Source of the DNA: Candidatus Omnitrophota bacterium
GTDB lineage: Bacteria; Omnitrophota; Omnitrophia; Omnitrophales; Aquincolibacteriaceae
Assembly (NCBI GenBank): GCA_903884815.1
Contig: CAISGE010000043.1
Span: forward strand, 701 to 64,700
Direction: 5' to 3'
Length of the DNA: 64,000 nt
The position numbers were made by a program, and so were the translations under genes. Below the pieces are notes generated by a model. That model saw only the letters and a list, made by a program, of their open reading frames with translations. It was not told the origin of the DNA and searched no databases. Positions 5,310-58,655 of the stretch are shown piece after piece. Position 1 is the first letter of the stretch. Every line of letters starts with the position of its first letter.

Positions 5310-5339
5310 TCTATGTTCTTCTTTTGCATATCTAAATTT

Positions 5340-7224: not shown

Positions 7225-7243
7225 CAAAACAACATAGCCACAA

Positions 7244-7838: not shown

Positions 7839-7877
7839 AAAGCGTAGTGAAAATTAAACATAAAAAAGGAGAAAACA

Positions 7878-8207
7878 ATGCCAACGCTACTGAATGACGA
7901 CAGCGACTACGTACCATTTATAAACCCAAGCCAGATTACAGACGGGGAAGAAGTCGAATTTGTGTCGGAAGGGAAATATACAGACGACCAGTTCGGTTCC
8001 AATCGACTGCAAATGGACGTTCGTTTTTCGAATGGGCAAGTACAGAGACTTACTGTAAATAAAACGTCTCAAAAAAACTTGTCGACCGTCTATGGACCGG
8101 AAACCGAAGCTTGGGTTAATCGCAAAGCCCGAATAACTGCAACTAAAAGGCCAACGAGTGTGCCCGGAAAGTGGAAATTCGTAGTAACCCTCTACCCTAT
8201 CGAATAA
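7878..8207 (+). CDS. Hypothetical protein (109 aa)
   Basis: RBS AAAGGAG upstream of the ATG. Confidence 0.5.
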   Translation: MPTLLNDDSDYVPFINPSQITDGEEVEFVSEGKYTDDQFGSNRLQMDVRFSNGQVQRLTVNKTSQKNLSTVYGPETEAWVNRKARITATKRPTSVPGKWKFVVTLYPIE

Positions 8208-8229
8208 CACCAACCACCGTAGAGAGCAA

Positions 8230-8330
8230 CATCCCTATGGATATACATATATATACATATATGTTTTGTACTTTTTAGCATAGTTTTTCTTATGATTAAA
8301 ACTATATAAAAATACATATCCATAGGGATG
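8230..8330. repeat. Inverted repeat (15-bp perfect arms CATCCCTATGGATAT / ATATCCATAGGGATG) flanking a roughly 60-bp AT-rich spacer
   Basis: Read directly. Lies between the cargo genes and the recombinase promoter region. Confidence 0.6.
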
Positions 8331-8770
8331 CATGCTCAGAAAGAAAGCGTTATGCCCCTAGATGGAACGAATAAGAAATGCGAACAGTGCCAAGAGAAGT
8401 GCAAGCAGTGGCGGCAGGTCACAATAATTCACTGCCCTTTTTTTCGGAGCAAACAAAGTCTGCCTACCCCTTCAGCTAAGGCTGGAACCACCAGGATGAC
8501 TTCTGGGACACCCTTTTCTGAAGATGAGCATAGCACCTAGGTAAGACGCACCGGACCACCCTTTAAGCAGGCCGGACGCAAATACCAGCGATTTAACAAA
8601 GCTAAGCGATATAGACGCTTTGGGAGCTTATATGCAACCCCAGCATAAACAACGAATTCGCCCCTGAATTTAAAGGGGTTACGCACTTAATCCCACCTTG
8701 GCGGGCGTCGTTAATAAGCTATAATAAGCTATAAAACGCCATAATCGACCAACAGAAAAGGGGAATTGCT

Positions 8771-10279: not shown

Positions 10280-10524
10280 AGAGTCGGACTTTCTCTTTGC
10301 CATATCCAAAATACTTGGACTTAGGCAGCAGGTGTAAAGTCTCTGCACTTGCCCTCCCGCCAAAGGCGGGATGCTAGCTCAGGATAGCCCCAACGCTTTT
10401 TGTTGGGATTTCCCTGACTTAGCCTGCTTATTCACCCTAAAGTTTCCCTTAGGGGCTGCTAACTTTGAGCGTGCTACGCTCACTCGTGCACAGCCGCATG
10501 CTCTACCAGCTGAGCTACAGGGGA
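10217..10524 (-). tRNA. tRNA-Asn(GUU) interrupted by a group I intron (exon 1 10490..10524, exon 2 10217..10257, CCA encoded)
   Basis: Exon sequence is UCCCCUGUAGCUCAGCUGGUAGAGCAUGCGGCUGU / UAACCGCAGUGUCCCUGGUUCGAUCCCAGGCGGGGGAGCCA. It is near-identical in architecture to E. coli tRNA-Asn. The anticodon loop CUGUUAA is restored after removing 232 nt. Confidence 0.7.
10258..10489 (-). ncRNA. Group I self-splicing intron (232 nt) in the anticodon loop of tRNA-Asn
   Basis: The 5' exon ends in U and the intron ends in G. P1 pairs GGCUGU with the IGS GCAGCC, giving a U.G wobble at the splice site. An R-like element (GUGCAGAGACU) and an S-like element (AAGAGAAAGUCCGAC) are present. No internal ORF. 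Confidence 0.6.
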
Positions 10525-35198: not shown

Positions 35199-38100
35199 TT
35201 ACGCGGCGGAGGCGAGGGAGCGGGCGGCTTCGGCGAATTTCTGGAGATTCTCCGCAAGCTTGAAGATGACGCTCAGGGACTGGACCCCGTGAAGCCTGTT
35301 TTGCTCTTCGGGCTTTTGTTCAAGCAGTGTGTTGATCGCGGCGATCAAGCCGTAAGACTTCTGGGTGAGCGTCATGCCTTTATCGCTGAAAACAAAGAGC
35401 ATCCGTTTCCCTTGATTGGATATGGACACAGCAGGCTCAAGCACCCGGAGCGCCTCCCCGTTATCTTCACGGAGATCATACACCAGCGCGTTTTCGGAAT
35501 TCTGTTTCGCGAAACCCGTGATCGCGGTTTCCTCCGAAACAACCTTCACATCCACACCGCCCTGGATACCGCGCGTCTCTTGGACCTTTCTAATGAGAGC
35601 GCCATGGAACTGTTCCAGATCCGCCGGCAAAGCGCCCGGCACCACGACCTGGAACTGGAGTTTGCTCTTGGCCATGACCTCAACGAGTCTCTTGAGCACC
35701 GAATCCTCCTTCTGAGGAATAGCACCAAAGATGACCGACACCTGCTGCCGTCCCGATTCCAGCTTCGTCGGATCCGTCAAAAGCTTCTCCACGCTGACCC
35801 TCTTTTCCGAACGCGTCATCGCGTGAGCGCTTGGCATGAGCTGATCCATCGTCTTCATGAACATCTCACGCCCGATTTCAAGCACGCGCGGCGCGGCGAA
35901 AACATCCTTCGCCGCCTCATGCGCCACCCAAATCTCTGCATCGGAAAGACGATGCTCAGACCTCCTCTCCTCCCTAGAGACCGGGTTCCCGGTGGATGGC
36001 GTGGAACGACCTTCGGCGGGAGGGTGGCCGAACACCTTCACGGTGAGCCAGAGCGCGGCTTGGCTTTGATATTCGAGGGCTTTTCCTTTCTGTGGATCCA
36101 AGGCGTCTTTGAAAATATTGCTGTTAAGAAAAATCCTCTCGTAGAAATCATCCGCATCCGTGAATGGCCGCATCGCTTCGATCGGTGCGATCTCTTCAGC
36201 CATCAGTTCAAAAGAAGCGTAGCCGCCTTTATCGAACCAGATTTCGTTTGTCATCCCTCTCAAGATATTCTGCCATTTGCTGACCGCCGCCGCCAAAGCT
36301 TGGCGCCTAGAAGACTCGTCCTGTTTCGTCGCGGCGCCATCAGGAGAAGCCGGCTTTTTCACCAATTCCCCGACAAATCGCCATCCCAGTATCGTTTCGC
36401 CACTATAGGCAACATCCGGCTCTGGGATCTTGAACCCCAACGATCGCGCTGTGGCCGCAAGCCGCGATACATATTCGGGGGTCAACTTCTCCGAGACGGC
36501 AACGCGTTCCCGCAACATTTCTTCGTGGTTTTTAAAAACCATGGCTTGCAATAAAAGCAACCCTTTCAATCGATCAAGCGGAATCTCTCCATCCCCCCCT
36601 CTGGCAATAGTTATTAATGCCTGAATAGCATTCAAAAGTTGCTTGAAGAATTCCAGCGTTACATTATCCTCCGTGCCGACAAACTTCCTCACGTCGGTGA
36701 TTGCGGACTGGATCTTTCCCTCCACGACCTCAAGCCGCTGAATGATCTGTGGGCGCGTGGGAACCGGGTCCCAATCCGCGATCCGGCCCAGGCCCGCTTC
36801 ATCGAGCGGCCCTAACATTTCCAACTCGTATTTTGTCGCCTGGGTGATCGCGCTACCGGGATGATGCATGAAAAAGCAGAAGCGCCCGCCTTCCTTTAAG
36901 ATGATCGCGGCCTGCCGCAGAACGGCCGGAACATCGCCGTATTCCACCCCGTATTGGCTCATCACCAGATCTGCTGCATCCTTCGGGACCCCCGGGGCCT
37001 CGGACGCTCGCTCCATAGCGGCCTGAACGAACGTCACACCCTTGGGCTTGCTTCCGGGCGTGTTCCGGAAAGGATCCACATAATCCACCGCATGGACCTG
37101 CGCACCGGGCGTAATCGCAAGAACACCGGCTTCGGCCTTTCCGCGGCCCGAAGCCAGACCCACGACCTTGGCGTCGGAAGGCAGCTTGCGGAACAAGGGC
37201 TCCCACACCGACTTCATCAAAGCTCGTTCAAGTTCCGGCCAAACAGGGCTATGCTCCCCGCTTGGCATGACGTCATAAAGAGATTGCCAATCACGCTGAG
37301 GGTCATAAGATTTTGCCGGGACCGCCTGAGGAGGCGCAGCTTTCCGGATCAGGCGGCCCCTGAAATACAGCCCCATCACACTGCCATTCATTTTAGCCCC
37401 GCTCACGTCCTTTTCCGTAATTTGGAACCCCAAATCCCGAGCCGTAAGGACGAGCTCCCGGAGATATTCCGGGTCCATTTTTTCGGCGACCCTGACCCTC
37501 TCCTGCAAAAATCGTTCCTGGTCATCAAGAGTCGCCGGCAAGGCACCAAGAAGAAGCTTAAGATCTTCGTCCGGCCTATAATCCGGTCTACGAACGCCCG
37601 CCAGTAAAGCGTCGATGGCCCGCAGGTACTGATCGAAAAATCCGGCGGCATCATTGTCATTCCCGTCCCTGGTCCTTCTAACCGACTCCACAATGGGTTC
37701 GATCCTCTTCCGGAGGGTCTCAAGACGTTCGAGGATCTCCTCCCGGTCAGGGACCGGGGCCCAATCGGCGATCCGGGTGACGCCTGTTTCGCGGGCCTTC
37801 TTAATCGCTTCCAGATCTTCCCGCGCGGAGTTGATGATCGCGCTGTAGGGATGATGCATGAAAAAGCAAAATAGTCCGCCTTCTTTCAAGATGTCCGCGG
37901 TCTCACGGAGTACCTTTATTACATCGCCGTATTCCACGCCAAATAGGCTCATGACCAGGTCCGCGTCGTGCGGTATCCCCGCCGCTTTGGACGCCTGCTC
38001 CATATCGGCTTGAATGAACGTGACACCCTGGGGCTTGCTTTCCGGATCATCCCGGAATGGATCTATGAAATCCACCGCGTAAACCTGGGCCCCCTGGACG

Positions 38101-41100
38101 ATCTTGCGGGCCCAGGTTTCGGGGACCGCGCGACCCGAGGCCAAACCGACCACCTTGGCGCCAGGCGGCAGCTCGCGGAACAAGGGTCCCCAAAGATTGA
38201 GCTTCAGGAACTGATCGTAATCATCCGGAACCACGCTGTTTTGCCCGGGAGCCATAGCGTCATAAACCCGTTGCCATTGTTTCTGCGGGGTCGTGGGGCT
38301 TTCAGCCAAACGAAGCTTCATGTTGCCTCGCGGCAGCCGCGTTTCCGCCCGACCCGGAGAATCCCCGGGAGCTGCCGGCACCGCGATTGGTTGTGCGGGA
38401 CTCGCTTCAGACCGTTCTGTTTTCAATACATTCTTAACCTCAGGAAAGATTCCTATTCTCTTTAAAAGCTCTTCCGCCAAGGGCAAATCTTCCCGAACGC
38501 CACGAGCCATCAACCAAAAACCACGACATACATTCCACACGGTCAAAAACAGTATTTTGATCTGGAAAGCGACCGACCAGTGCACCCTTTCATAGTGGTT
38601 GTACGCAATGCTTGGCCTCACATAGCTTGAAGCAAGAAAACCTTTTTGCGTGGAAGCGCCAAGAGGAAACTGCGCCTTGAAATAGCTAAAAAGTCCGGGC
38701 TTTCTGAAAGCCAGGATCGCATCCAGATGTTGCCGCGTTGTTTCGCCCTTGAGCAACGGCCTAGGGCCAAAAAAAGTCATTGAGCCTTCGATGATATTGA
38801 AAAGCTGGGGCAATTCATCCAAGCCCGATCTCCTCAGGATCGCGCCAAAGGGTATAGAAAAGCTACCGAACGGCAACGTTATTTCTTCCTTATTCTTCTC
38901 TAGGGTTCTTAATTTATAGACCATGAAGAGTTTTCCCCGGTAGCCGACCCTTTGTTGTTTCAAGATCACCGGACTTCCGGAAAACAGCCAGATCAAACCG
39001 GAGATGATCAGAATCACGGGAGAGAAAAGTATCGCTAAGGAAAGCCCTGCCAGTACATCGAAGATCCGTGATCCCGTGATCGGCCGGAGTCCTTCAGATT
39101 TTTTGGCCCATGATCCGGTGCCTGACGTTCCTCGATCCATCACGAACGTCGCAAGAATGTTGGGATCCTGTTGCCCGTCAGCCGGCTCCCGCATCTCCGC
39201 CCGCTCCGGAGAATCCCCGGGGGCTGCCCGTGTGGCTGTGGAAGCGATCAACTCACCGACAGGCACCTTGTTGGCAGTCACCCCGGGGGATGTTGCGGAT
39301 TGATTGATTTTTTGGATACGCGATTCGGCACGACTGCCTTTGTCCTTTTCCACGCGCCCGGCGGGACTAAACCCGGCGTTGGCGAGATACTGCTCGACGT
39401 TCTTCCAGTGGCTCATCGGGAAAAGGTGGATCCCCGTTACACCCGGCAGGAGCAAGGCCTTTTCAAACCGGCCGCGATTGTAAGAATCCCGGAACTTTCC
39501 GAACGCCTCGGGCTGCTTTACCTTGAAGGCCTCCGCTCTTTGCCAAGCATCGAGCGATTTTGCGGCCTCGGGATCGCGATAGGGATCCACTCCCATGAGA
39601 TGGCACCAGAAGCGGAGGTTCTTCGCACTCGATATCTCGGTCATGCCAATCTTGAATTGGAGGTTATCCATTAAGCCTGCGGCTTGAGCGGCATCCCAAG
39701 TTTTCCGGAACTCGCCGGGGAAAAGTGGCGGCTGGGTGTAGATCACGGTCGCACCCGCTTTTTTCTTCCTCGTCAGATCCTGGAGGGCATCTCCCGCATG
39801 GGGATTCCAGGTCGCCCAGATCTGAACATTTGCCGGAATCTCGCCGTTTTTCTTCATCTTGACCGCTTCTTTGATTGCCCAGTCGGTCTGGACCAGGAAT
39901 TGAGCGAGCGGTGTTTTCCTCAAGGGGTGCCCCCCGCCCATGAAGAGAAGCGCCTTCGTCTGGGGCCGGTTCCCAAGGTCCCGGATTATATCGAGTACAT
40001 CGAACGCCGACTGGGTTTGAAGCGCCACGGTCGCGACAAAATCCGTCCCAGGCAGTGGCATTTCCCGAATCTTCTCAAAACGCCCGACCTCGCTCCACAT
40101 GTCGGCGATTTTGACGGCGCGCGGGTCCTGAGAATTTTCAATCTTTTCGCCCCGACGACGCATGAATTCCTGGAACCCCCGGGGATACGGGAACGAGTCC
40201 TTGCGAAGCTTTTTTCCACGCATCATCAAAGCGGCATCTTCGACCCAAGCCGGAACTTCCGGAGCGCTCCGCGTGCTTGTCCCGTCAATCCACCCCGCTC
40301 CGTATAGCTGCATGAACGCGTCCCTTTCAGCAAGATACTTTTTCATGGATGCGGGATCATCCAACCGCGGCGCCGCAAGTTCCGCCGTCACGGTGAATTT
40401 CTTTTCGCTTACCCTCTCAGACAATCGCCCCAATCGGTTTCGCGTCTCGAATCGCAAAGAATCTCCGGGGACTGCCGGCGTGACTGCAGGAGCGATCAAC
40501 TCACCGACAGGCACCTTGTTGGCAGTCACCCCGGGGGATGTTGCGGATTGATTAATTTTTTGGATACGCGATTCGGCACGCGAAGCTTCAGCATCGGAGC
40601 GAGCGGCATCTGCTCCCGCGCCACTTGATACCGTGTCAGCCGAAGCATCGGTTTCTTTGGCTGCATTATTTGCCTCGATGAAAGCCTCGGCTTTATCCAG
40701 CGCGACATCCAATTGTCCTGGGGAAGGCTTGTGCCAAAGACGGGAATCCGGCCAATAATCCGCCAGGGGGCCGGCGACACTGCGATACCCGAGCGCCTTG
40801 AACACAAGCCTCTCCAAGACCTGAAACCAGAAAAATATTCTCTCGAAGAATCGAACCACGGGATTTCGTGTGGATTGCCGGCGGCCCTCCGGGAGATAGT
40901 CGATATCCGTCTTCACCCAGAGCTTCCACTTGCCATCCTCCGGATCATACGTCAATACCGTCATCGCGGCATTCTTGAGATTCCCTCTTTCAAAATGTTG
41001 GTAGACCGCGTCGAACTGGGAGGAGGGGATCTCCAGCATGTTCATGAGGTCCATCAAAAAATCAAGCCTGTGCACACCGATGAGAAATGTCTTTTCCGGA

Positions 41101-44100
41101 CGCGTGGGGATCTCTTTCAAAAACAGGAGCGCCTTGTCCTTTTCGGCCTGGGATCCGGAATAACCTTCGATCTCGTACTTCGCGGGATCTCTCCTGAAGA
41201 TCCTGAACATTTTCGCCCGCGTGGACGCAACCCAACGGTAAGGATAACCGCCGAACCAGTCCAATTTCACTTCGCGCAAGCTCTCCAGAACCTCCGGCTT
41301 TTTGCCCGCCCGGCGCGCCAACGGAGAAACCGTTTGGTAGTCCCGCTCGAGATCGCTGGAGAGATAAGCCTCAAAGGTGATCTTCATTTTCTTGAAAAAA
41401 GCCACCAGGGCCGCGACCTGAAGACGCCCGAAAATCGTCAAGGGCGAGAACATGGAATGATCCTGATGGTACTCAAACTCATTGGACCCGGAACGCCCGT
41501 GGGATACAAGGGTCACAAGCTTTCGCCCCGGCTTTTCCGCAAGCCATTGGCGCATGTCCTCATATTGATCAAAGAAATTTTCGGCAAACATGTATTCCGG
41601 ATTCAGGCGCTTTATTTCCTCGGACGTCAATTGCTTCGGTTTATCCCGATTCTCAGAGCGGCGTGCAACGCCAACTTGAACCGGTTTCAACCGCGTAGGT
41701 TGAAGGGGTTTATGCGGCAGGACCTCACGAATTTGCGGCATGTAGATCGCCCCCAGGGCTAAAAGAATATCCCCGGCTACAGTGAAACCGATCTGAAACC
41801 ACCAGTCCTGGATCCAAAAAACAGGATTCATCATGAGCCACGCGCTGTCTTGGTGTAACTGAAGAACAATTGGAAGGTTCACAAATGCCGTCGCGAAAGA
41901 AAGCGCCAGTTTTAGGCGCGTGACACCGGAAACCAACGGTAAAGTTCCCTCAGGCCGCGAAGATGCGTAGGGATTAAAATCAGCTTCGGAAATCGCGGCG
42001 GATTGCGCCTGGCCGTCTCTACTTTCTGAACGGTCAAGCGGTTCAAGACGGACCCAATACGAATCCTGAAGGCGGGAATCCCGAGGAAATCTCGAAGGGG
42101 TCAGTTGCGCGTCCAGGATGACGCCCTTGTCGGTGCGCCCTTGAAAATATTTTTTCCATGTCGGGGTCTGCCGGGTCCAAAAAAAGACGGAGTCAGCTCC
42201 CTTCTCCTGCATCGCGGCAAAAAAGGTATCCCGGAAGAAAACCCAGTCCTGATCCGGACCGTCCGGCCGCGTCACAAGAGCCTGAAGCACCACTTTCTTG
42301 TAGGTCTCACGGGTTCCTTCTTTCTCATGCCCCCAAGGCGTGAAAAACAAGATCCCGTCGAGCTTCATGTCCGCGTCAAACATCGCCCAGACCGGCTCGC
42401 CGTAAGACAGAGTCTCCCTCAAGATCTTCTCCGTCATCCAGAAGCCGTCCCGCCCGTGGTCTTTCGCTTCGATCGCCTCAAGGCTCGCAAAAACTTTTGC
42501 GAGCACGGCCTCATCCGTTATCTTGGACAGATCCGCGATGATCAGCCCGTCCGGCCTTTCCGCGATCACCGCGCCGGCAAGATCTTCTTTGCGAAGCTCT
42601 GAGCGGATGGCCCCAGAAAATTCCCGGAATTCCGCGCGGGGATTTCCGGGAATGGTTCCGGGTTGAATGGCTTGCCGCACTTCAGAGCGCTTCTCTCCTC
42701 TTTCACGAACAAAATCTATCGTCTTGCCCAAGACCCGGAATAAGGCCTCGTTGTCTTCGAAAAGAATCCCCGCCTCCGTAATGGCTTCCCGCACGTGATA
42801 ATCGGACGGGATCGGCTGACCATTCCAGACCAGTTCCCGGCAATGCTGCAAGGTGAACTCGATCGCCTCCCGACGCATCCGCTCGATCAGCTGTTCTGCC
42901 AGTAAGCGCGCCTGGATCAGCTCGATCCCCATTAGAAAGAATGTCTTGTCGTCGGGCAAGGAAGGCATTTCCGCGGGCGGACGATTCCCATGCTTGCGAT
43001 CGAGCGCTTTATTGATGACGGAAGCGTCAACCCTCTCCAGGGTCGCCAGGATCTCCAGGGAAGCCAGGATCTTCCGCAACTTTTCTTTTGAAAGTTCCAT
43101 GAACGGAGGGCCGTCATCCAACATGTCCGGGGATTCTTCATCCGAGGCCATTTGTGAGATCATCTTCTCCACCTCTGACCGGTGCTGAAACTCCCTTTGA
43201 TCCACGACCCATTGGACCACAATGATCGCGTCTTCAATAAGCCGGCGCTCGGCTTCGGCTGTTTTTCCGGAAAGGCCCTGCCCCGCCAAAGCTTCTCGGA
43301 CGGATACGATCGCTTTTGACCGACCCTTCTCGAGCGGCTGCCCGCCATGGAGGACCTTCTCATAGGCCCTGAGCGTACGGATCACTCCGTCAAGAGCCGA
43401 GCGTCTGCCGATGACTTTCCCATTTCCGTCTTTCGGCATCAGTGCCACGCCCAGCGCTTTCGCCTCTTTTTTTTGATCCGGCGAAAGGTCCTTATAATCG
43501 ATCTTATACCGCATCTCCGACCGGGTGGCCTCAGCTGCGGCGATCGCGCGCAGAATATCCGCTTCCCGGATCTTTTTCAGGGAGAGAAGTTCTTCAAAAG
43601 CACTCCGGATACCGGCTTGGAAATGCTCCGACAAGGGAGTCCCGTCGCCATTCTTCATCTCAAAGATATCTTCGGCGCCAAAACTGCGGGTCTCCACGGG
43701 AACGTCGTCGATATTGATCTTGAGCTCATCCAAAACCCGGGTCACGACATGCATGCGGCCAAGCCCGTTGGGCATATGGACAAGCAGCCGTACATTTCCC
43801 TGCTTTTCCGAGGGAAGGAATTTGAGCGAGGCCGGACCGCCGCTGTCCTCGAACGTATCAAACTCATAAGGCCGTCCCTGCGCCGCAAAGAGCGCCCGCA
43901 GCTTCGGCATGTAATCCTTCTCGACGACGATTTCTCTCAGGGCCTTCGTCAGAGCTGCCACAAAATCATCCGAGACCCCCATCTCTTCACCTTCCTGGCC
44001 GACCTGGTAGACCATAAAATGGTCGAAGGTCTTCCCGTCAAATCCCGTCACGTCCGCGTCATGAATACTGAGACGAAAACCAGCAAACACCCCCGTGAGA

Positions 44101-56100: not shown

Positions 56101-58655
56101 GCGATCATGGTGGGCGACAGAAAGTCCGTCACCATGTCTCCCGGGCCGGAAATAGCGTGCCAAACACTTACAATCTTAGTATTTTTCTTGTAGTTTTGGA
56201 GCATTTCCCCGGAATGACTCCCCTCTCCGAAAAGCAAAATGCCTATGCTCTGAAAGAACTTCGCGAGGGCATAAGCGCTGTCGATCGTAACGGGCGCGTC
56301 GTTCAGAGGATGGGTTAGAAGGATCTTGTCTCCATCCAGCCGGATCGCTATACGGCCCGCCGAGGGATGAAGTTTCTTGAAGAGGCCCGGACAGTAAAGA
56401 GCCTTGTAATCAAGGGGATGCAGGCTGTGACTTTTTCTTTGATACTCCCGCCGGTAACTTTTTTTGTTGGCCTCCATATAAAAAACGCTCCGGCGGGGAC
56501 GAACTATGATCTCCTCATCCGTAACCGTAACGACCTCCAGCCATTCTGGCCTTTCGGGATCTAAAATAATCCCGTCCCCGGGCTCTAGATCCTGGCCTTC
56601 ATACAGAAAAGCCCGTGGAACTTTGCCGTCGATCTTGATCCCCCGCTTTTTTTCCGAGGGGCGAGACTTAGCGTTTTCTTCAGCCTCTTCTTGGACAGCA
56701 GGATTCGCCGTCCGATTCTCCGCGCGGGCAAAGCTAAGTTGAGTACCGTTCCACGCAAGACCGAGGGCCGCCAACCTGGGAGCGATCAACTCACCGACAG
56801 GCACCTTGTTCCGGCCGCCGACCGTTCGAAGGGCTTCCTGGAAAATTCCAAGAAGATGGCCGGCGATGACGGGCCCAAGGTCTTTGCGTAGATCCGGGAG
56901 CAAAGCGAAGGAAGGAGCACGAACGCTTGAATCTTGATCGCGCGACGAATCGGACCCCGGTTTTGGCGTTGCGCGCTGCGCTCTGCGCGCTGCGCCCGGA
57001 GGTGGGGTGATACCCGTCATCACGCTGAGGTAATTCGCATTCGATTCCAGATTCGTGATACGCGGCGCGACGCGGACATAAGAAATTCCGTTTTTCTTAA
57101 AGAGTTCCGCGAGACCTTCCGAATGGAATCCGCCAGTCACGAGAACCGCATTCGCCTGCTTCAGCGATTTCATTTGCGCGAACATGTTCCTGAAGAGTGC
57201 CTGTTCCCGCTTTTCAGCAGTCTCATAGAAGCTCAACGCGCAACGCGCAACGGTCAACGTTGGACTCGCGAGCTTTTCACGTTGTGCGTTGTGCGTTGTG
57301 CGTTGCTCTAGCAATTCCTGATACTCTTCCCGCGAAAGTTCCAGGCTGAAAAGTTTCTTCAGCGACCGGTACTCTTTATACCTTTCGATCAGGGCTTTCT
57401 CCACATCGGAAGTCGCGAGCTTCGCGAGAATCTGATCGTTTAATTTTTCGACCTCCTTGAAAAGGTCCGGCGCTTGCAACTCGTTTGAAAGGATCGCGAT
57501 CCCGATACGACGGGTCAGATTCGGATAATCTTCAAAACGGAAACCGAGCGGCGCGGCCTTGGAATAGAAATCCTCCATGAGAGAGCGAATGTCTCTACCG
57601 CGAGGTAAGGCGGAAGGCGTACGGCGTGCGGCGCCCGACGCTTCGTCTTGTAGAATATCTGACAGATGATAGCTCTCCGGATCTAACCGATGGGCTAAAA
57701 TCCAGGATATAAGCTTTTGTTTTTCCTCCCCATACTCCGTACCCCGTACTTCGTACGCCGTTTTTTCAAGTGCTTTTAATTTAAAAAATCGAACTAATTG
57801 CGGCCAATCGTATTGTTCCCGGGCATTCGTAAGGTCCAGCGCGAGATGCTCCTCCGCGACTTTCGGAAGTTGTTCCAGCCCTGCGAAAGGCTCGGCCGCA
57901 ACCTCACTGTGAAAAGCCCAATCGCGGAAGAATTTTTTGAGTCCGAGATTGAAGGCCACGGAGGCTTCATCGGTGATCTTCTGGCGGATCTCTTTGAGGG
58001 CGGCATCGGTTTGCGGCTTTGCCGCATAAACAGCGCGAAACTGCTCGAGGTTTTCTTTGTAGAGCTTGAGGTCTTCGACGCCGTAAACGCGTCCGGCGGA
58101 AGGCGAACGGCGAGCGAGGCTTTCTTTTGCGCCGTACTCCGTACTCCTTACTCCGTACGAATCAGCAAGATCCAGCTCCACACCGCCGATCAGTCCCCGG
58201 CGATTCATTTCTTCAAGAAGTTGGCGATTCAGTTTCGCGTCATCAAAAAAATGGAGGTTTGCAGGATCAAGGGGTTTCCAGGCACCCTCGAGATAAACCG
58301 TATTGAGACCGTAGGCCTTTCGCAGGTGGGCGAGAATACGTTCAATGTTTTCCTGCCCCTCGGGCTGCCCGTGAGCTTCTTCCACGTGGACAATCACGGG
58401 TACGGCGGAAGGCGTACGGTGTACCGCGTCACTGCTTTGAGGTGATACCTCATGATAGACTTCTCGGATGATTCCAAGTTCAGAAGGGATTGAGATCTTC
58501 TCCTCTAAGGAAGTTAGAGAAATCTCCGGACTCCGTACGCCGTACGCCGTACTCAGAGTAGGAGTAGCCTGGACAGTCGTCGTCGTAAAGCAGATCAGCG
58601 TGCAAACAGCAAACGCACGCAAAAAGTGAGAGAACTCTCCCTTAGTTTGACGCAT
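35199..58655 (-). CDS. Giant multidomain protein (7,818 aa). It has a signal peptide, a UPF1-like SF1 helicase, a GlnD/GlnE-like nucleotidyltransferase with HD and ACT domains, internal TM helices, a MetF-like domain, a PglC-like phosphoglycosyl transferase and tandem SAM-MTase-like units.
   Basis: One uninterrupted ORF of 23,457 nt in a 58%-GC background. Multiple unambiguous enzyme motifs are all in the same frame (see the sub-features below). There is a plausible promoter and an N-terminal Sec signal. Confidence 0.75.
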   Translation of the reverse strand: MRQTKGEFSHFLRAFAVCTLICFTTTTVQATPTLSTAYGVRSPEISLTSLEEKISIPSELGIIREVYHEVSPQSSDAVHRTPSAVPVIVHVEEAHGQPEGQENIERILAHLRKAYGLNTVYLEGAWKPLDPANLHFFDDAKLNRQLLEEMNRRGLIGGVELDLADSYGVRSTEYGAKESLARRSPSAGRVYGVEDLKLYKENLEQFRAVYAAKPQTDAALKEIRQKITDEASVAFNLGLKKFFRDWAFHSEVAAEPFAGLEQLPKVAEEHLALDLTNAREQYDWPQLVRFFKLKALEKTAYEVRGTEYGEEKQKLISWILAHRLDPESYHLSDILQDEASGAARRTPSALPRGRDIRSLMEDFYSKAAPLGFRFEDYPNLTRRIGIAILSNELQAPDLFKEVEKLNDQILAKLATSDVEKALIERYKEYRSLKKLFSLELSREEYQELLEQRTTHNAQREKLASPTLTVARCALSFYETAEKREQALFRNMFAQMKSLKQANAVLVTGGFHSEGLAELFKKNGISYVRVAPRITNLESNANYLSVMTGITPPPGAARRAQRATPKPGSDSSRDQDSSVRAPSFALLPDLRKDLGPVIAGHLLGIFQEALRTVGGRNKVPVGELIAPRLAALGLAWNGTQLSFARAENRTANPAVQEEAEENAKSRPSEKKRGIKIDGKVPRAFLYEGQDLEPGDGIILDPERPEWLEVVTVTDEEIIVRPRRSVFYMEANKKSYRREYQRKSHSLHPLDYKALYCPGLFKKLHPSAGRIAIRLDGDKILLTHPLNDAPVTIDSAYALAKFFQSIGILLFGEGSHSGEMLQNYKKNTKIVSVWHAISGPGDMVTDFLSPTMIARALREHNFDVIFETAESEAWWEDFQEKYGKEIHEGHSTLGDSLALFRVTHPVRAEARKESGAEPGARSAGKLLNKFAGQSLVSLGTTTSRSEGRIDLDGELTEEEFRAYFISKSEKYFQEPFARSVFDRIRVGHGNSVNEWPTPVMGAILTELEEACEVHFRRKGIRSIEDITLPADIGVARVQMLNLFLLPGWEEMRGQYREGIEQRMKAFRLYGYTPELTEHGFATLAGNYRKIGERERSLFFSIAALSLILDGHDGTLDAGLIGLLTELLGKLSMDFSLDSRRIPATEELLRFSLETLADMEETLQKVQAEARETGESMRRKILAYYKDKPHDLDPERPEETLINVVRGSRTQSQFVNALWLSVHHTEASLDRAIQLSEGSGGGVNDDVAILFPAYLVKADRLRRAGNMPAALEYLAKAKGFLDSGRFSHFMGVMAGQRQGDEGEALAAEARAEAAWQKTAEMMVFYYERLIEDDFSAETAMEMRRRYQDIRGISGVWFATRIAESYYAEWLLEQGKEAEATEVLTGIFSDLVKNGKTGVKGSSRYGSFSQFFHPGMPFTPFEDPASPESGHYVSRSDAAIVSILVDPYRWPEDPKVLAEMLIYAVRNNPEVIEKVLVAWADLGMEGEFNVDHEPSLKAALSILLQEQGLEIWLAALHFCVQIQDPALNADMMAFLIEQAKEADHRNVMAFVTDSNAVIRALFSGKVRPRSTQAINDWITAFMRQHKRSLKTLVYESFAARLVASGYKPESLLELLQEAVEQETQDKVLHDRLSKRKESTLAASSYLFYFIESISSLSRVMALNPENKASVAFMENILSFLEGLLEGGPAAFEVLFSPAEKKASPEAKDQLLLQVYSYLSEMLFELGAKAASHPLKERFEKVHQALLDRFFVLYFRQLGRRNVGSEDLENAAKKLELDPQEILEAYAHRAEYLFRAQKWEELQKWMVPWIRLLKVVPRLAAGDSSERSGKHSVALRSIAGVNTGLIDILLMSNPELLGVFFPESGEQAPVAPSPESLNLALLARHNPERERFYAAMKPIALSDPSTPDIDSFKAQMINSLFLFANEIRSQEPELAEKALGVAIAYFRETAAASRNPVTEAEFQAGSRASHFSTDKPFARNQQAYFRLCLALAREDNDAVKMALTELHRADEEAGDGATFPAMDTALVEAVFTVQEGGSRKAALDILEKLFIFQENAAAANGTRAPPVYDRIEILLNRFLNLPPAYKETAISLLAELIAEGRAETRIPVDSVDNRFFVLNALMSRVASPEWNMALFRVMDSKWADGSPAERSAWVDVFTEMAPSSVPAIGAVLFCDRILRDDVSKQWQAPVSAFRKELETQLTPQGYYELAEQQFKDAKYAECGQSLETARRNGASGDLALSIQELAAKRKRVAERKRQLQKDLAAQDKDLDSLERSITAILKDNSEDREALDLKEKVQGAREIEAQALEKFAEEDYSGALEKLQEFPESLTGNKTRKRRKALETWIGALSTVRGSLERSELEKAEGQLENSLREMQKNWSQGSPLAEHDTVQHLRDEIQDLRSTLQGLEHAISGNGTYSAVFENAKRLAVFPNRAVRAAQLVLRLAEEAFHSGVAGKATDFKKAYYYAVFVAELEREFPVIADEGRAARNLASHAMAQHWLPELTDQGFLISAMVKARQEREEENIRESNGRPIEIKFSKIELHPEKRMFTVYDLKLGRAGATGGETVWDDLGKPEKFGWPEDTFRIRNPSKKEPMQPFFRLVKRGVEHGRSFMQFELPETHKGFDYLNALLTGEVSKGGILTRTSARALERQEDYLADYVLNLTTSTRLAKGNGLLTTQATTGNALVDYALGLQIGVAAQEKETDFSAFEKMEAEYAESGKALDPAQRAAVKETLRPAGSPGNYGSASPIVLVQGPPGTGKTKVIEWITKLASEGGQRVVVLSQSNAGADNVAKKLLEDGLPFVRVGSNEDAIDHEILPSWEARGPELDLMLKQRKSGGGSLLIGTINGFSGDKEIRTRPELLNTDVLIIDEASLATLPEFFFAFAQLQGVKKIIVVGDPDQLPAFGISDEDRRFITKYLNQAKKLGRNIFAGNELKTRFGQRTLLEILDKEKRNAHKKSYLEKALDLFYPRELALAGFVSFAPYFFLNIQRRSGSWIVRLINYFYRKSGRPKLMAGREITGMVIDDNTHGRFGFHDENANSEDHDGGKKNPGEADRVITHIHWLMNKKHLGAEDIGVISPYADQVELIRDRLLATSKAHDYLVRLAAGQELSNDEWIVFEELFGSEALEARVDYRADSWLMANHPGYRGLRGQQKGGVRREKVRGIKDSLRRIRRGEGDRRTQAAEILRFLGLEGSFPAAYEIEVSLLDVTTVNKSQGSEYKAVIVSWVRSNEDDNVGFLADPVEGRNRINVAISRAKDYLIMVWDRDTFERCKDPDVHEWVMDYNDVMREFSGSGPRDRGRHRRRSETRNTTLPDDQLDWISREGALFKAQREKILKSNTPWEEKSVALADLADHYVAKVAEEFKRYIHRNYPDTPPMLFVATGSYGRREVAPHSDYDGLVVVRTHADVESLKDHFTPGGFVYESSRVLGGAWDLFALEEFENPVTVTDLGLTKEFNAASSASFAARMQATHRTTAPEIQREAMTQLLFAREVSSPGLPFAELETALKNHLDQPVKRARVLRQILDAWDEHRQEEGYFSGLAEREPDLKWGAGGLKDFDVASWVVRLFFRDENDAIDQTSGHNIAFLTREEFEEARKAAAHIREIRWKLQALPTAEEGGSSDRLGLEQQPALAEWMYRETGAGEDARVVLFLEDLHRAQRTLYLYASTILDRALQKTTPLQYDFLPDGDDEKFPFPGVEKAKRFGETITENGPVLIPEDRKEAVLTLHPGQSIRPDDILEIFKFAAEHDCALTGELLDGIKNARAAFLEHLGRDEAFRAQARAAFAAILRAKGPIGDLLLQAHLLGLLEEIVPGYRELNHRVVQDFKYEHTLDVQSINYARILDGLRGKAEVTGPMAGASRLSIPEDWLAPVRAAMLVDALIDQKIPGIDPSKVFALIGLDPAEAGKARWLIEKRTALFSLMQNSGLYYPDEFLEFQRDNLSDAAGRPDFHRWQVLVALTLTQIETFQKGRTEIYLNRLKPFLEITEEEFMDPERMKTYYREHVPLDQLPGFAEGLEDDEVRVDWEATGIPDTWVLRVASRSRLDRPGRLFRIATVLASGKQGQFSVLSLLPQHFAKGAITVNAMIVRRNFLDQALEEDPKFSENLTERFRSALLMEDAGKVRSGYRNKPFFRSPALMPLPPTKVLVRHYGHSNFVYLETPDGIGALADIAHILLMHGLLLGPRSTIDTVGYSRKVGLQIQDTIHVLRPDGSQPSSREMKDLAEDLEFAFSHETITDEVLNEVLVRVDSRHRLRANRSNMRVVDEDSFSKAARAWSKNRPKDKDLGRKQPDPGMEAAYLITQQLPLLQKAFGITIRGDEVVLRPEEIIPNEAGQIEREWLNMGDQRLVEAARQFLHEKGLNEEVLGKGWKEALQTLSEVDERGRPAQGEFRPEFESALLKARLFIDLLYEIGSGILETPIAETAREIIDPDPGKTFDPERVMDLFIRSAETKKPVSAFNQIAIMAAAGTVASDSPEARELWKGFMRFLRVQTDISDAVYAMHQTGLLSLMSPEFAELDNIYDDNAYWHYYRVSNHALYAFDNFEELTFGDLPPNGAPSQVLGAVGFHESAKDPEWLARMRLGVLFHDVGKQLILTKFQVSHQIRGAITLLPQILERAGLLTQFAADEFRTFAFLQFIIWYHQHGNSIIQNFRELIESALFDWQARLAMSAEEGLDPRSLIRAFAAITLADRLGTHPDRNAELMGRAPEAWVNPIILERTREFFLELQAFFESGFNALSREKILRRRDEKNRAYTEELLDQLKRYYPSEAALAEARKQLGKFAALKGYDYLRRFRPDMIQEHLVLFNKLEEMPVDRQGIPLVSVLHSEEGYSRADQHFLHIAVGVPFDEPGILARLTGVFAGFRLSIHDADVTGFDGKTFDHFMVYQVGQEGEEMGVSDDFVAALTKALREIVVEKDYMPKLRALFAAQGRPYEFDTFEDSGGPASLKFLPSEKQGNVRLLVHMPNGLGRMHVVTRVLDELKINIDDVPVETRSFGAEDIFEMKNGDGTPLSEHFQAGIRSAFEELLSLKKIREADILRAIAAAEATRSEMRYKIDYKDLSPDQKKEAKALGVALMPKDGNGKVIGRRSALDGVIRTLRAYEKVLHGGQPLEKGRSKAIVSVREALAGQGLSGKTAEAERRLIEDAIIVVQWVVDQREFQHRSEVEKMISQMASDEESPDMLDDGPPFMELSKEKLRKILASLEILATLERVDASVINKALDRKHGNRPPAEMPSLPDDKTFFLMGIELIQARLLAEQLIERMRREAIEFTLQHCRELVWNGQPIPSDYHVREAITEAGILFEDNEALFRVLGKTIDFVRERGEKRSEVRQAIQPGTIPGNPRAEFREFSGAIRSELRKEDLAGAVIAERPDGLIIADLSKITDEAVLAKVFASLEAIEAKDHGRDGFWMTEKILRETLSYGEPVWAMFDADMKLDGILFFTPWGHEKEGTRETYKKVVLQALVTRPDGPDQDWVFFRDTFFAAMQEKGADSVFFWTRQTPTWKKYFQGRTDKGVILDAQLTPSRFPRDSRLQDSYWVRLEPLDRSESRDGQAQSAAISEADFNPYASSRPEGTLPLVSGVTRLKLALSFATAFVNLPIVLQLHQDSAWLMMNPVFWIQDWWFQIGFTVAGDILLALGAIYMPQIREVLPHKPLQPTRLKPVQVGVARRSENRDKPKQLTSEEIKRLNPEYMFAENFFDQYEDMRQWLAEKPGRKLVTLVSHGRSGSNEFEYHQDHSMFSPLTIFGRLQVAALVAFFKKMKITFEAYLSSDLERDYQTVSPLARRAGKKPEVLESLREVKLDWFGGYPYRWVASTRAKMFRIFRRDPAKYEIEGYSGSQAEKDKALLFLKEIPTRPEKTFLIGVHRLDFLMDLMNMLEIPSSQFDAVYQHFERGNLKNAAMTVLTYDPEDGKWKLWVKTDIDYLPEGRRQSTRNPVVRFFERIFFWFQVLERLVFKALGYRSVAGPLADYWPDSRLWHKPSPGQLDVALDKAEAFIEANNAAKETDASADTVSSGAGADAARSDAEASRAESRIQKINQSATSPGVTANKVPVGELIAPAVTPAVPGDSLRFETRNRLGRLSERVSEKKFTVTAELAAPRLDDPASMKKYLAERDAFMQLYGAGWIDGTSTRSAPEVPAWVEDAALMMRGKKLRKDSFPYPRGFQEFMRRRGEKIENSQDPRAVKIADMWSEVGRFEKIREMPLPGTDFVATVALQTQSAFDVLDIIRDLGNRPQTKALLFMGGGHPLRKTPLAQFLVQTDWAIKEAVKMKKNGEIPANVQIWATWNPHAGDALQDLTRKKKAGATVIYTQPPLFPGEFRKTWDAAQAAGLMDNLQFKIGMTEISSAKNLRFWCHLMGVDPYRDPEAAKSLDAWQRAEAFKVKQPEAFGKFRDSYNRGRFEKALLLPGVTGIHLFPMSHWKNVEQYLANAGFSPAGRVEKDKGSRAESRIQKINQSATSPGVTANKVPVGELIASTATRAAPGDSPERAEMREPADGQQDPNILATFVMDRGTSGTGSWAKKSEGLRPITGSRIFDVLAGLSLAILFSPVILIISGLIWLFSGSPVILKQQRVGYRGKLFMVYKLRTLEKNKEEITLPFGSFSIPFGAILRRSGLDELPQLFNIIEGSMTFFGPRPLLKGETTRQHLDAILAFRKPGLFSYFKAQFPLGASTQKGFLASSYVRPSIAYNHYERVHWSVAFQIKILFLTVWNVCRGFWLMARGVREDLPLAEELLKRIGIFPEVKNVLKTERSEASPAQPIAVPAAPGDSPGRAETRLPRGNMKLRLAESPTTPQKQWQRVYDAMAPGQNSVVPDDYDQFLKLNLWGPLFRELPPGAKVVGLASGRAVPETWARKIVQGAQVYAVDFIDPFRDDPESKPQGVTFIQADMEQASKAAGIPHDADLVMSLFGVEYGDVIKVLRETADILKEGGLFCFFMHHPYSAIINSAREDLEAIKKARETGVTRIADWAPVPDREEILERLETLRKRIEPIVESVRRTRDGNDNDAAGFFDQYLRAIDALLAGVRRPDYRPDEDLKLLLGALPATLDDQERFLQERVRVAEKMDPEYLRELVLTARDLGFQITEKDVSGAKMNGSVMGLYFRGRLIRKAAPPQAVPAKSYDPQRDWQSLYDVMPSGEHSPVWPELERALMKSVWEPLFRKLPSDAKVVGLASGRGKAEAGVLAITPGAQVHAVDYVDPFRNTPGSKPKGVTFVQAAMERASEAPGVPKDAADLVMSQYGVEYGDVPAVLRQAAIILKEGGRFCFFMHHPGSAITQATKYELEMLGPLDEAGLGRIADWDPVPTRPQIIQRLEVVEGKIQSAITDVRKFVGTEDNVTLEFFKQLLNAIQALITIARGGDGEIPLDRLKGLLLLQAMVFKNHEEMLRERVAVSEKLTPEYVSRLAATARSLGFKIPEPDVAYSGETILGWRFVGELVKKPASPDGAATKQDESSRRQALAAAVSKWQNILRGMTNEIWFDKGGYASFELMAEEIAPIEAMRPFTDADDFYERIFLNSNIFKDALDPQKGKALEYQSQAALWLTVKVFGHPPAEGRSTPSTGNPVSREERRSEHRLSDAEIWVAHEAAKDVFAAPRVLEIGREMFMKTMDQLMPSAHAMTRSEKRVSVEKLLTDPTKLESGRQQVSVIFGAIPQKEDSVLKRLVEVMAKSKLQFQVVVPGALPADLEQFHGALIRKVQETRGIQGGVDVKVVSEETAITGFAKQNSENALVYDLREDNGEALRVLEPAVSISNQGKRMLFVFSDKGMTLTQKSYGLIAAINTLLEQKPEEQNRLHGVQSLSVIFKLAENLQKFAEAARSLASAA
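36400..37345 (-). other. Giant protein: SAM-methyltransferase-like unit 2 (tandem duplicate of unit 1)
   Basis: DAKVVGLASGRGKAE, ADLVMSQYGVEYGD, ILKEGGRFCFFMHHP. DNA also similar: 36861-36890 versus 37849-37878. Confidence 0.5.
37350..38300 (-). other. Giant protein: SAM-methyltransferase-like unit 1
   Basis: GAKVVGLASGRAVPE (motif I-like), ADLVMSLFGVEYGD, ILKEGGLFCFFMHHP. Confidence 0.5.
38600..39080 (-). other. Giant protein: PglC-like monotopic phosphoglycosyl transferase (bacterial sugar transferase) domain
   Basis: RIFDVLAGLSLAILFSPVILIISGL re-entrant helix, YKLRTL, LRRSGLDELPQLFNIIEGSMTFFGPRP (catalytic DE dyad), FRKPGL. Near-colinear with C. jejuni PglC. Confidence 0.75.
39209..39330. 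repeat. Intragenic repeat encoding linker RAESRIQKINQSATSPGVTANKVPVGELIA (copy 1)
   Basis: About 90 nt essentially identical to 40459-40580. Core GCGATCAACTCACCGACAGGCACCTTGTTGGCAGTCACCCCGGGGGATGTTGCGGATTGATT. Confidence 0.7.
39340..40440 (-). other. Giant protein: MetF/methylenetetrahydrofolate-reductase-like TIM-barrel domain (tentative)
   Basis: Order-preserving resemblance to MetF: FTVTAELAAPR / LYGAG / VIYTQPPLF / GIHLFPMSH versus VSFEFFPPR / VTYGA / AITQFFFD / DFHFYTLNR. Weak, so tentative. Confidence 0.35.
40459..40580. repeat. Intragenic linker repeat (copy 2). A partial third copy lies at 56775-56805.
   Basis: Read directly. Confidence 0.7.
41700..41960 (-). other. Giant protein: internal cluster of 2-3 transmembrane helices
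   Basis: LKLALSFATAFVNLPIVLQL ... VFWIQDWWFQIGFTVAGDILLALGAIYM. Confidence 0.5.
43690..44190 (-). other. Giant protein: tandem ACT domains
   Basis: HIAVGVPFDEPGILARLTGVFAGFRLSIHDADV and VRLLVHMPNGLGRMHVVTRVLDELKINIDDV. Confidence 0.5.
44500..45100 (-). other. Giant protein: HD phosphohydrolase domain
   Basis: MRLGVLFHDVGKQ (H...HD...K metal-binding signature). Confidence 0.6.
46000..46260 (-). other. Giant protein: ACT-like domain
   Basis: VLVRHYGHSNFVYLETPDGIGALADIAHILLMHGLLLG. Confidence 0.4.
47950..48600 (-). other. Giant protein: GlnD/GlnE-like nucleotidyltransferase domain
   Basis: LFVATGSYGRREVAPHSDYDGLVV (G-S-x9-D-x-D NTase motif) and downstream DLKWGAGGLKDFD. Confidence 0.7.
48880..50450 (-). 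other. Giant protein: UPF1-like superfamily 1 helicase domain
   Basis: Walker A LVQGPPGTGKT, Walker B LIIDEAS, VVGDPDQLP, ISPYADQV, VNKSQGSEYKAVIV, NVAISRAK. Confidence 0.8.
51480..52000 (-). other. Giant protein: long coiled-coil segment
   Basis: Heptad-like charged repeats RKRVAERKRQLQKDLAAQDKDLDSLERS ... LEKAEGQLENSLREMQ. Confidence 0.45.
57244..57316. repeat. Heptad-periodic palindromic element, CAACGCG/GTTGTGCG-type, in-frame inside the giant gene
   Basis: CAACGCG CAACGCG CAACGG ... GTTGTGC GTTGTGC GTTGTGC GTTGC. The arms pair with G.U wobbles only on the plus-strand transcript. Confidence 0.55.
57603..57765. repeat. GTACGG-type palindromic element (arms 57603-57645 and 57730-57765), in-frame inside the giant gene
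   Basis: AAGGCGGAAGGCGTACGGCGTGCGG ... CATACTCCGTACCCCGTACTTCGTACGCCG. Confidence 0.55.
58088..58158. repeat. GTACGG-type palindromic element, in-frame inside the giant gene (encodes SYGVRSTEYGAK / ARRSPSAGR)
   Basis: Read directly. Confidence 0.55.
58397..58562. repeat. GTACGG-type palindromic element (arms 58397-58427 and 58530-58562), in-frame inside the giant gene
   Basis: GGGTACGGCGGAAGGCGTACGGTGTACCGCG ... CTCCGTACGCCGTACGCCGTACTCAGAGTAGG. Confidence 0.55.
58566..58655 (-). other. Giant protein: N-terminal Sec signal peptide (MRQTKGEFSHFLRAFAVCTLICFTTTTVQA)
   Basis: Positive n-region, hydrophobic core, VQA cleavage-like site. Confidence 0.55.

Follow-up and report, generated by a model that had tools for sequence, protein, structure and literature searches.

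How does a small membrane enzyme insert its re-entrant helix after ~6,500 residues of the same chain have already been made, and what is its job beside helicase, PII-uridylyltransferase-like, phosphatase, and methyltransferase cassettes? Both questions are raised by a stretch of 64,000 nucleotides from a Candidatus Omnitrophota bacterium (assembly GCA_903884815.1, contig CAISGE010000043.1, positions 701 to 64,700 of the forward strand; hereafter, the window), in which one giant gene encodes a chain of 7.8 thousand residues with an internal monotopic phosphoglycosyl transferase (PGT). In bacteria, the step that first commits surface-glycan synthesis to the membrane is controlled by monotopic PGTs, of which stand-alone forms and forms carrying one or two further domains are known. 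An earlier note on the window had described this segment as a PglC-type domain embedded in the middle of the giant protein, between a MetF-like domain and methyltransferase-like units, and had taken it for a membrane-anchored catalytic site inside a giant scaffold. In our analysis, the segment is a genuine and complete but atypical monotopic PGT with the small-PGT fold, as judged from sequence and model; its activity is not callable from the sequence. The reading towards which we lean, on a slightly better than even footing, is that of a membrane-tethered monotopic PGT in a modular giant, with the family's ping-pong chemistry and altered substrates.

The assignment to the PGT superfamily draws on profiles, pairwise similarity, and fold. 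The Pfam profile Bac_transf (PF02397) matches with 115.7 bits against a gathering cut-off of 27 and covers profile positions 2-178 of 179, and the best NCBIfam match is a polyprenyl glycosylphosphotransferase family. A phmmer search of PDB sequences returned C. concisus PglC (E 5e-19) and Salmonella WbaP (E 4e-16). An AlphaFold2 model of residues 6490-6768, computed from 85 aligned sequences, has a core with a per-residue confidence (pLDDT) of 85-96 and low confidence at cassette residues 178-186. When this model was compared to the PDB using Foldseek, the best matches were PglC (8g1n/8e37, E 7e-12, with a TM-score of 0.68-0.70 normalised to PglC), followed by WbaP (8t53, E 5.8e-9), and these two proteins were the only significant PDB neighbours. 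The re-entrant helix is the top hydrophobic peak of the entire giant protein (Kyte-Doolittle 2.56) and has basic residues on both flanks. It is modelled as two helices, at cassette residues 37-54 and 56-70, broken at the residue before S6545-P6546; the proline is found in 209 of 223 family domains and is kept in the giant.

Much of the earlier description holds up under this scrutiny. The peptide RIFDVLAGLSLAILFSPVILIISGL ... YKLRTL ... LRRSGLDELPQLFNIIEGSMTFFGPRP on which it was based reads verbatim in the translated open reading frame (ORF), starting at residue 6530 (nucleotide 39068), and the two features that it had left to alignment, the Asp-Glu dyad (D6613-E6614) and the re-entrant-helix proline (P6546 of the Ser-Pro pair, at the helix break of the model), are both present. 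Its figure of about 6,500 residues into the chain is correct, while ‘middle’ is a loose term for a domain at 83-86% of the protein length. Its coordinates, 38600-39080, span residues 6526-6686 and take in ~85% of the domain, which extends down to 38526, and the cassette around it to 38352. The conserved Met 6506 was considered as an internal start for the PGT, and no Shine-Dalgarno-like sequence was seen upstream of it. There is no second PGT elsewhere in the window and no Rfam family overlapping the PGT region.

Which residues does the domain keep? We aligned it with 118 free-standing PGTs of ~200 residues, using C. concisus PglC as the numbering reference, and repeated the alignment with the complete domain of a relative from a second species (described below), and then with 223 diverse family domains. 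The superfamily-conserved columns, defined as at least 90% conserved in the 118 small PGTs, number 48, and 31 of them are kept in both species, including all residues of the catalytic core. In PglC numbering, the kept residues include D11, S23-P24, Q45, R47, G49, K59, R61, and T62, then G84, R88, D93-E94, P96, and N100, and lastly G110-P111-R112-P113, P134-G135, K171, and T176. K59 and R88 correspond to K6581 and R6608 of the giant, and the PRP motif has been called nucleotide-binding (PMC10186338).

Two of the replaced residues have been functionally tested in PglC. The first lies in the N-terminal Lys-Arg motif (K7-R8), which reads S6529-R6530 in the giant, whereas the lysine is present in 210 of 223 family domains. 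Its partner D169, an aspartate in 212 of the 223, is Q6698, and the relative has the two changes as well. The K7-D169 pair is known from PglC, where the K7A mutant has no activity (PMC6133551). The second lies in the divergent C-terminal subdomain, residues 6653-6705, which has an insertion of ~10 residues and in which PG-I-T-G-x-A-Q-V-N-G-R has become PG-L-F-S-Y-F-K-A-Q-F-P (T137F, G138S, A140F, Q141K, G144F, and R145P). The PGT cassette lacks the PGxTGxxQxxGR block, which includes R145 and in PglC binds polyprenyl phosphate, and reads KPGLFSYFKAQFP at this place (PGLFSYFKAQFP opposite PGxTGxxQxxGR). Substituting R145 in PglC with Ala or Gln lowers activity 100-200-fold, and this arginine has been modelled on the undecaprenyl-phosphate head group (PMC10519829). 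Further changes are S91 to G, S107 to T, D157 to N, and Y160 to E. The fingerprint by which PglC is linked to N,N'-diacetylbacillosamine (diNAcBac), an aromatic box of Y118, Y122, W150, F154, and F197 together with a GLLLP loop (PMC10186338), is also missing, with Y118 replaced by E, Y122 by Q, and W150 by T, and the loop reading EEITLPF. Given the absent aromatic box, the domain is small-PGT-like and not a PglC orthologue, so that ‘PglC-type’ is apt for a colinear, full-length monotopic PGT but not in the narrow sense of the name.

These losses invite the reading that the domain is a catalytically silent anchor, a PGT fold retained merely to pin the C-terminal cassettes to the membrane, and K7, R145, T137/G138, Q141, D157, Y160, and D169 all count in its favour. 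So do the employment of dedicated hydrophobic hairpin cassettes as anchors in this protein family, the relaxed ratio of nonsynonymous to synonymous divergence (dN/dS) detailed below, and the flanking genes examined, among which partner glycan-assembly genes were not seen. However, an anchor would not need D93, E94, K59, R88, N100, or the PRP motif, and all of them are kept in both species. Moreover, 12 of the 17 atypical positions carry the identical residue in both species, a pattern that speaks for a new constraint rather than for decay. We consider the silent anchor unlikely.

The relative was found in a search of ~5.8 billion clustered proteins, where the sole close cluster (P0001) was 77% identical, and the matches after it were ordinary small PGTs at 38-42% identity. 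Scanning genome contigs with the PGT segment returned only an unrelated Clostridia PGT (42%), and a scan of metagenome contigs, swamped by generic PGTs because the DELPQL[FL]N pattern is family-wide, returned no close relative. A longer member of the P0001 cluster, P0299 (1,364 residues), lies on a Joint Genome Institute contig (L086), where the downstream gene is the same ygiQ-type radical-SAM (S-adenosylmethionine) gene as in the window, with a product 81-87% identical; this makes L086 the orthologous locus in a related species. Here, too, a long ORF contains the PGT in frame (Pfam E 1.4e-35), and RSEMR, an instance of a motif described below, comes before it. Its neighbours differ, other cassettes standing in place of the MTHFR-like cassette and the double methyltransferase of the window. 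On the same contig, an apparent frameshift at 1394-1451 splits the giant gene within its histidine-phosphatase cassette into two gene calls that overlap by 58 nucleotides.

Comparing the two species, 43 of the 48 conserved columns are identical, versus 133 of 182 other positions (Fisher p 0.02). Over the 275 codons of the PGT cassette, the proportion of nonsynonymous differences is lower than that of synonymous ones (pN 0.124 < pS 0.207, p 0.005), and in the 217-codon core, the synonymous divergence (dS) is 0.26 and dN/dS about 0.5, the overall figure for the PGT being about 0.5-0.6. The corresponding values are 0.99 and 0.27 for the conserved C-terminal tail of the giant, and 1.19 and 0.07 for ygiQ. 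At the level of these sequences, the PGT cassette is under purifying but weak selection, constrained rather than decaying.

Could the giant ORF itself be an artefact, whether a chimera made in assembly or adjoining genes fused and in decay? It occupies positions 35199-58655 of the reverse strand, encodes 7,818 residues, and runs for 23.5 kb without a stop. The identical 7,818-residue gene was called in at least four independent assemblies, which excludes an accident of assembly; the C-terminal 9.8 kb, as readable in those assemblies (L002-L005), is 99.99-100% identical to the window, and two members of the protein's own cluster (P0291 and P0295) differ from it by 1-4 residues. A related short contig does split the gene just inside the PGT (P0001 starts MRLGRF...), and the apparent frameshift in the histidine-phosphatase cassette of L086 points the same way. 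Yet the PGT is in frame in the second species and pN is lower than pS, and with the long stop-free frame recurring between assemblies, we regard an artefact as wildly improbable.

The comparison of the two loci also bears on how the giant is built. An ungapped block of 85.7% DNA identity covers residues 6487-6761 (window 38374-39197 versus L086 3671-4494) and runs exactly from one boundary motif of the cassette to the next, while the tail and ygiQ share 73.6% DNA identity. With dS values of 0.26 against about 1.0-1.2, these figures indicate that the PGT cassette behaves as an exchangeable unit. Judging from the sequences, the two copies diverged later than the regions around them, for which exchange at the level of cassettes is the best explanation; cassette content varies between the orthologous loci. 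The lower guanine-plus-cytosine (GC) content of the PGT cassette (0.50 versus 0.52-0.57) was not used as evidence of transfer, since its hydrophobic composition can account for it. As an internal cassette, this PGT was found in only two instances, the window's species and the one relative.

An exhaustive HMMER search with residues 5570-6768 as the query recovered the wider family, long proteins of 2,000-8,000 residues that share a signal-peptide-like N-terminus, a ~600-residue head domain, a histidine-phosphatase cassette (itself part of the query), and a delimiter motif. Among 21 proteins of at least 1,000 residues collected by then, only that of the window carries the PGT (P0299 was found later), apart from an unrelated PGT fusion of 1,157 residues.

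The delimiter, R-[S/A]-E-x-R, occurs 18 times in the giant, counting one R-F-E-T-R, whereas 2,000 shuffles gave 0.8 on average and never more than 5. The copies start at residues 644, 905, 942, 2096, 3303, 5045, 5323, 5340, and 5351 in the first half of the list, and at 5542, 5666, 6026, 6068, 6442, 6485, 6769, 7565, and 7615 in the second. Their codons vary, and the other ORFs of the window hold a single copy in 25,340 residues. Every copy falls between domains and none within a Pfam domain, dividing the chain into ~13 cassettes. Across 14 family proteins (55,067 residues), we counted 108 copies, most with M, V, or L at position 4, and saw K, D, or Q variants only 1-3 times; the first copy always follows the head domain, at residues 530-644. 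The motif could be a processing or a docking site.

If it is a processing site, the giant would be a cassette polyprotein, cut at R-[S/A]-E-x-R, from which the PGT is freed as an ordinary small PGT of ~280 residues. The excess of motifs over shuffled sequence, their abundance across the family with rare variants, and their placement outside Pfam domains from the end of the head onwards all suit this reading, as do the high-identity DNA block that starts and stops at the two motifs flanking the PGT and the differing cassette content of the orthologous loci. The alternating R-E-R would, in addition, suit an extended strand, and it is as extended strands that substrates bind to proteases. On the other hand, neither Pfam nor NCBIfam detects a protease domain in the giant, the resemblance of the head to hydrolases is non-significant (Foldseek E 0.2-0.4, and nothing from a PDB profile search), and a structural or docking role is an alternative for the motif. 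We rate such cleavage as possible, with clearly less confidence than the membrane-tethered PGT of a modular giant. It is compatible with catalysis and contradicts the reading ‘inside a scaffold’; the catalytic site inside a giant scaffold proposed earlier is right in that the PGT is in frame within the ORF, but it is one reading only, in that the flanking motifs could be processing sites. A more elaborate version, in which a polyprotein of ~13 enzymes, of a kind not known to be described from cells, is cut at the motifs (possibly by the head), its cassettes are swapped between lineages, and the PGT is freed as a fast-evolving lipid-phosphate transferase with a non-canonical substrate, strikes us as doubtful, more so than the silent anchor. 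In the extreme form of this version, the PGT would target the polyprenyl phosphate of a host or prey cell.

The two ends of the giant are conserved in the family. The head domain is found at the N-terminus of many giant relatives and has invariant residues H95, E123-G124, R483, and G508-G509-F510-H511; two homologues, 30-31% identical, are annotated as Candidatus Omnitrophota/Omnitrophica. Its motifs had raised the suspicion of a Tiki/erythromycin-esterase-type hydrolase. The three best Foldseek matches (3b55, 2rad), which we take to be erythromycin-esterase-type B. cereus proteins, are non-significant at E 0.2-0.4, and nothing relevant turned up when a head-domain profile was run against the PDB, so this stays an unconfirmed lead. 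The tail domain is homologous in P0001 and P0170, and several family members have a homologous tail. All nine aligned C-termini (P0133, P0001, and seven relatives) end in Ala-Ala, namely SLASAA, ARAA, AVAA, QRAA, ERAA, AGAA, TRAA, and EQAA, and this -AA ending, by analogy, recalls C-terminal recognition tags. Between the ends, other members carry cassettes such as an RNase T exonuclease, an aminoglycoside-phosphotransferase-type kinase, and a LOG-like domain; P0140 has a polytopic CPBP/Rce1-like protease cassette, and other relatives have hydrophobic hairpin-like cassettes.

A conserved head and tail with variable cargo, fast cassette turnover with high dN/dS, and signal-peptide-like N-termini with A-x-A-type ends, conserved in the family, could also describe an exported effector array, whose PGT inserts into a host or prey membrane and ties up its polyprenyl-phosphate pool. 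A predatory or episymbiotic lifestyle has been reported for Omnitrophota, and giant proteins are implicated in it (10.1101/2023.11.21.568195). Against export, the hairpins, the re-entrant helix, and the polytopic cassettes of relatives would arrest passage through Sec. Pfam and NCBIfam found in the giant no RTX repeats, no autoprocessing cysteine protease, no viral protease, and no secretion-system domain, nor did PADLOC, and a dedicated exporter was not found among the flanking genes examined in the window. An exported array is, in our judgement, very unlikely.

Returning to the membrane-tethered PGT that we favour, the following mechanism can be proposed. The helix-break-helix seen in the model would enter the producer's inner membrane at its cytoplasmic leaflet, tethering the C-terminal part of the giant there, probably aided by the hairpin cassette at residues 5547-5665; a cytoplasmic-face topology is consistent, on sequence grounds, with the basic residues flanking the re-entrant helix. 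The polytopic and hairpin cassettes of relatives agree with a membrane-anchored protein whose bulk faces the cytoplasm. A covalent Asp-phospho intermediate is established for monotopic PGTs, and the kept core (D6613-E6614, K6581, R6608, and P-R-P) would run the same ping-pong chemistry, in which attack by the Asp on a nucleotide-activated phospho-donor expels a nucleoside monophosphate, and a lipid phosphate then takes over the phosphoryl-linked group. The remodelled substrate half, constant in the two species, suggests that the donor and/or the acceptor is not the canonical UDP-sugar or undecaprenyl phosphate. K6660, at the Q141 position and one helical turn from R145, may replace the lost arginine. 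The enzyme may act within the 7,818-residue chain or only once freed from it at the R-A-E-x-R motifs on either side. Most long proteins of Omnitrophota are likewise predicted to be membrane-anchored with the bulk in the cytoplasm (10.64898/2026.06.07.730766, section 9).

Several observations weigh against this proposal. Changes affect 17 of the 48 conserved columns, and both K7 and R145, residues functionally tested in PglC, are among the losses in the PGT cassette. The dN/dS of the PGT core is far above that of ygiQ and the tail, indicating weak constraint. The Sec-signal-like N-terminus, conserved in the family, makes the predicted topology less certain. Lastly, neither the giant nor the flanking genes examined yielded a glycosyltransferase, flippase, or polymerase domain.

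The remaining architecture is that of a modular chain with ~13 cassettes of enzymes, and those members of its family that carry a name are Omnitrophota (Table 1). Many distinct Pfam families tile the one polypeptide, along with hydrophobic segments identified by hydropathy scan only, and the Pfam and NCBIfam content comprises a helicase, GlnD-type nucleotidyltransferase, ACT, His_Phos_1, Bac_transf, and methyltransferases. Residues 5547-5665, with no Pfam match, look like a dedicated membrane hairpin, having two hydrophobic segments (5581-5601 and 5619-5640), an aromatic loop between them, and basic residues on both flanks. The neighbour described earlier as MetF-like has no direct match, as the unit itself matched nothing in Pfam, the PDB, or a word-index search; the name is justified through transitive homology, its homologues from the exhaustive HMMER search matching Pfam MTHFR (P0145 over the full profile at E 8e-11, and P0169, P0147, and P0164 more weakly). 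A profile built from the unit had a single, weak PDB match, an MTHFR-like protein at E 0.08. The methyltransferase neighbours are borne out by two downstream units with Pfam matches. These units have the exact strings AKVVGLASGR, GVEYGDV, and FCFFMHHP in common, a similarity that indicates an origin of the pair by internal duplication. Both copies of a linker repeat flank the MTHFR-like cassette, and a partial third copy (NKVPVGELIAP) is found at residues 616-626; recombination between such repeats could drive gain or loss of this cassette. A PADLOC scan gave generic helicase similarity only (MkoA, RecD-like), and a defence-system reading was dropped for this reason.

Table 1. Features of the giant gene and of the window, with window coordinates, residues of the giant protein, and the basis of each call.
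Feature	Position	Residues	Strand	Basis or remark
Signal-peptide-like N-terminus and conserved ~600-residue head	56727..58655	1-643	-	
Superfamily-1 helicase		2719-3263	-	Pfam/NCBIfam
Two GlnD-like nucleotidyltransferase/ACT regions		about 3308-5044	-	Pfam/NCBIfam
Putative membrane hairpin cassette, 119 residues	41661..42017	5547-5665	-	hydropathy
Histidine-phosphatase cassette	40581..41645	5671-6025 (Pfam domain 5715-5914)	-	common to many giant relatives
Linker repeat copy 2	40458..40580		-	92.7% identical to copy 1
MTHFR-like (‘MetF-like’) cassette	39333..40439	6073-6441	-	transitive homology to PF02219
Linker repeat copy 1 (SRAESRIQKINQSATSPGVTANKVPVGELIA...)	39210..39332		-	123-bp direct repeat
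RAEMR, upstream boundary of PGT cassette	39189..39203	6485-6489	-	
PGT cassette	38352..39188	6490-6768	-	between two R-A-E-x-R motifs
Re-entrant membrane helix SRIFDVLAGLSLAILFSPVILIISGLIWLFSG	38976..39071	6529-6560	-	hydropathy and model
Bac_transf (monotopic PGT) domain	38526..39068	6530-6710	-	Pfam, E 2.2e-33
Ser-Pro break	39018-39023	S6545-P6546	-	PglC S23-P24
Catalytic Asp-Glu dyad	38814..38819	D6613-E6614	-	alignment; PglC D93-E94
PRP motif	38757..38765	P6631-R6632-P6633	-	alignment; PglC P111-R112-P113
Divergent C-terminal subdomain	38541..38699	6653-6705	-	KPGLFSYFKAQFPLGA replaces (R/K)PGITGxAQVNGR
Degenerate RSEAS	38400-38414	6748-6752	-	
RAETR, downstream boundary of PGT cassette	38337..38351	6769-6773	-	
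Two tandem paralogous SAM-methyltransferase units	35964..38336	6774-7564	-	Pfam Methyltransf_11/23
Conserved C-terminal tail ending ...SLASAA	35202..35948	7570-7818	-	
hsdS	128-1477		-	type I restriction-modification
hsdM	1470-2906		-	type I restriction-modification
hsdR	2913-5309		-	type I restriction-modification
Large serine recombinase	8771-10279		+	

Away from the giant gene, the first part of the window (1-10300) is a low-GC island (0.43 versus 0.55) that contains the restriction-modification genes and the recombinase, and is probably an integrated mobile element. Directly at its edge sits a transfer RNA (tRNA) gene on the reverse strand (10217-10524), called Thr-CGT by ARAGORN with introns allowed and missed by the default tRNA scan; its anticodon loop holds a group I intron of 232 nucleotides (Rfam RF00028, 51.8 bits, 10265-10485). 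Further along, an ORF on the reverse strand (14549-16090) has a DUF1570 domain (E 2.8e-9), a family that we take to be associated with Planctomycetes-type genomes, and which would suit a window of Planctomycetes-related origin.

The locus offers two practical openings. The remodelled substrate half, conserved in two species, is a natural variant with which the residues behind donor and acceptor choice can be probed. The delimiter motif, the head and tail signature, and the signs of cassette exchange provide a testable handle on the building, and possible processing, of the giants associated with Omnitrophota; the R-S-E-x-R delimiter is the most promising lead among them.

How does this protein compare to known systems? 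With small monotopic PGTs, exemplified by C. concisus PglC (8G1N/8E37), the domain shares the fold, the length of the catalytic unit, and the catalytic core, but it is not free-standing, has K7, S91, S107, T137, G138, A140, and Q141 replaced as well as G144, R145, D157, Y160, and D169, and carries the ~10-residue insertion. Bifunctional monotopic PGTs (Bi-PGTs) are described as a PGT core with one extra catalytic domain at the N- or C-terminus (PMC11626204, PMC10942596). The giant is like them in that its PGT core is covalently joined to other enzymes, with methyltransferases and the MTHFR-like cassette flanking it, and unlike them in its far greater size and in that this core is internal, with ~6,500 residues before it and ~1,100 after it, in the company of ~12 unrelated cassettes. 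As in the large monotopic PGTs, such as Salmonella WbaP (8T53, the fold match at E 5.8e-9), the PGT core is C-terminal to other domains; unlike in WbaP, neither a four-helix transmembrane bundle nor PF13727 precedes it, and its score against NCBIfam EPS_sugtrans is 112.7 for a cut-off of 295.55.

The long proteins of Omnitrophota typically have methyltransferase PF08241, HD-type regulatory domains, and signal-peptide and transmembrane content (10.64898/2026.06.07.730766, 10.1101/2023.11.21.568195), and the giant resembles the very long ones in the many distinct enzyme domains that tile one chain. At 7.8 thousand residues, it is below the cut of 10 thousand used in their catalogue. The texts of both preprints contain no Bac_transf/PGT domain, linker motif, polyprotein, or signature of head, R-S-E-x-R, and -AA tail. 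Full-text literature searches found nothing relevant on an R-S-E-x-R motif or delimiter or on an Omnitrophota polyprotein, and they returned no internal PGT cassette, no head/-AA tail signature, and no cassette-level exchange. Bi-PGT fusions, large PGTs, and multi-enzyme giants of Omnitrophota are already known kinds. In MARTX toxins and viral polyproteins, the ends are conserved, the enzymes carried between them vary, and short conserved sites separate the domains. By Pfam and NCBIfam, the giant lacks their RTX repeats, cysteine protease domain, type I secretion signal, and viral protease, and, by analogy only, it is like them in its conserved ends, its variable cargo, and the short sites between its domains.

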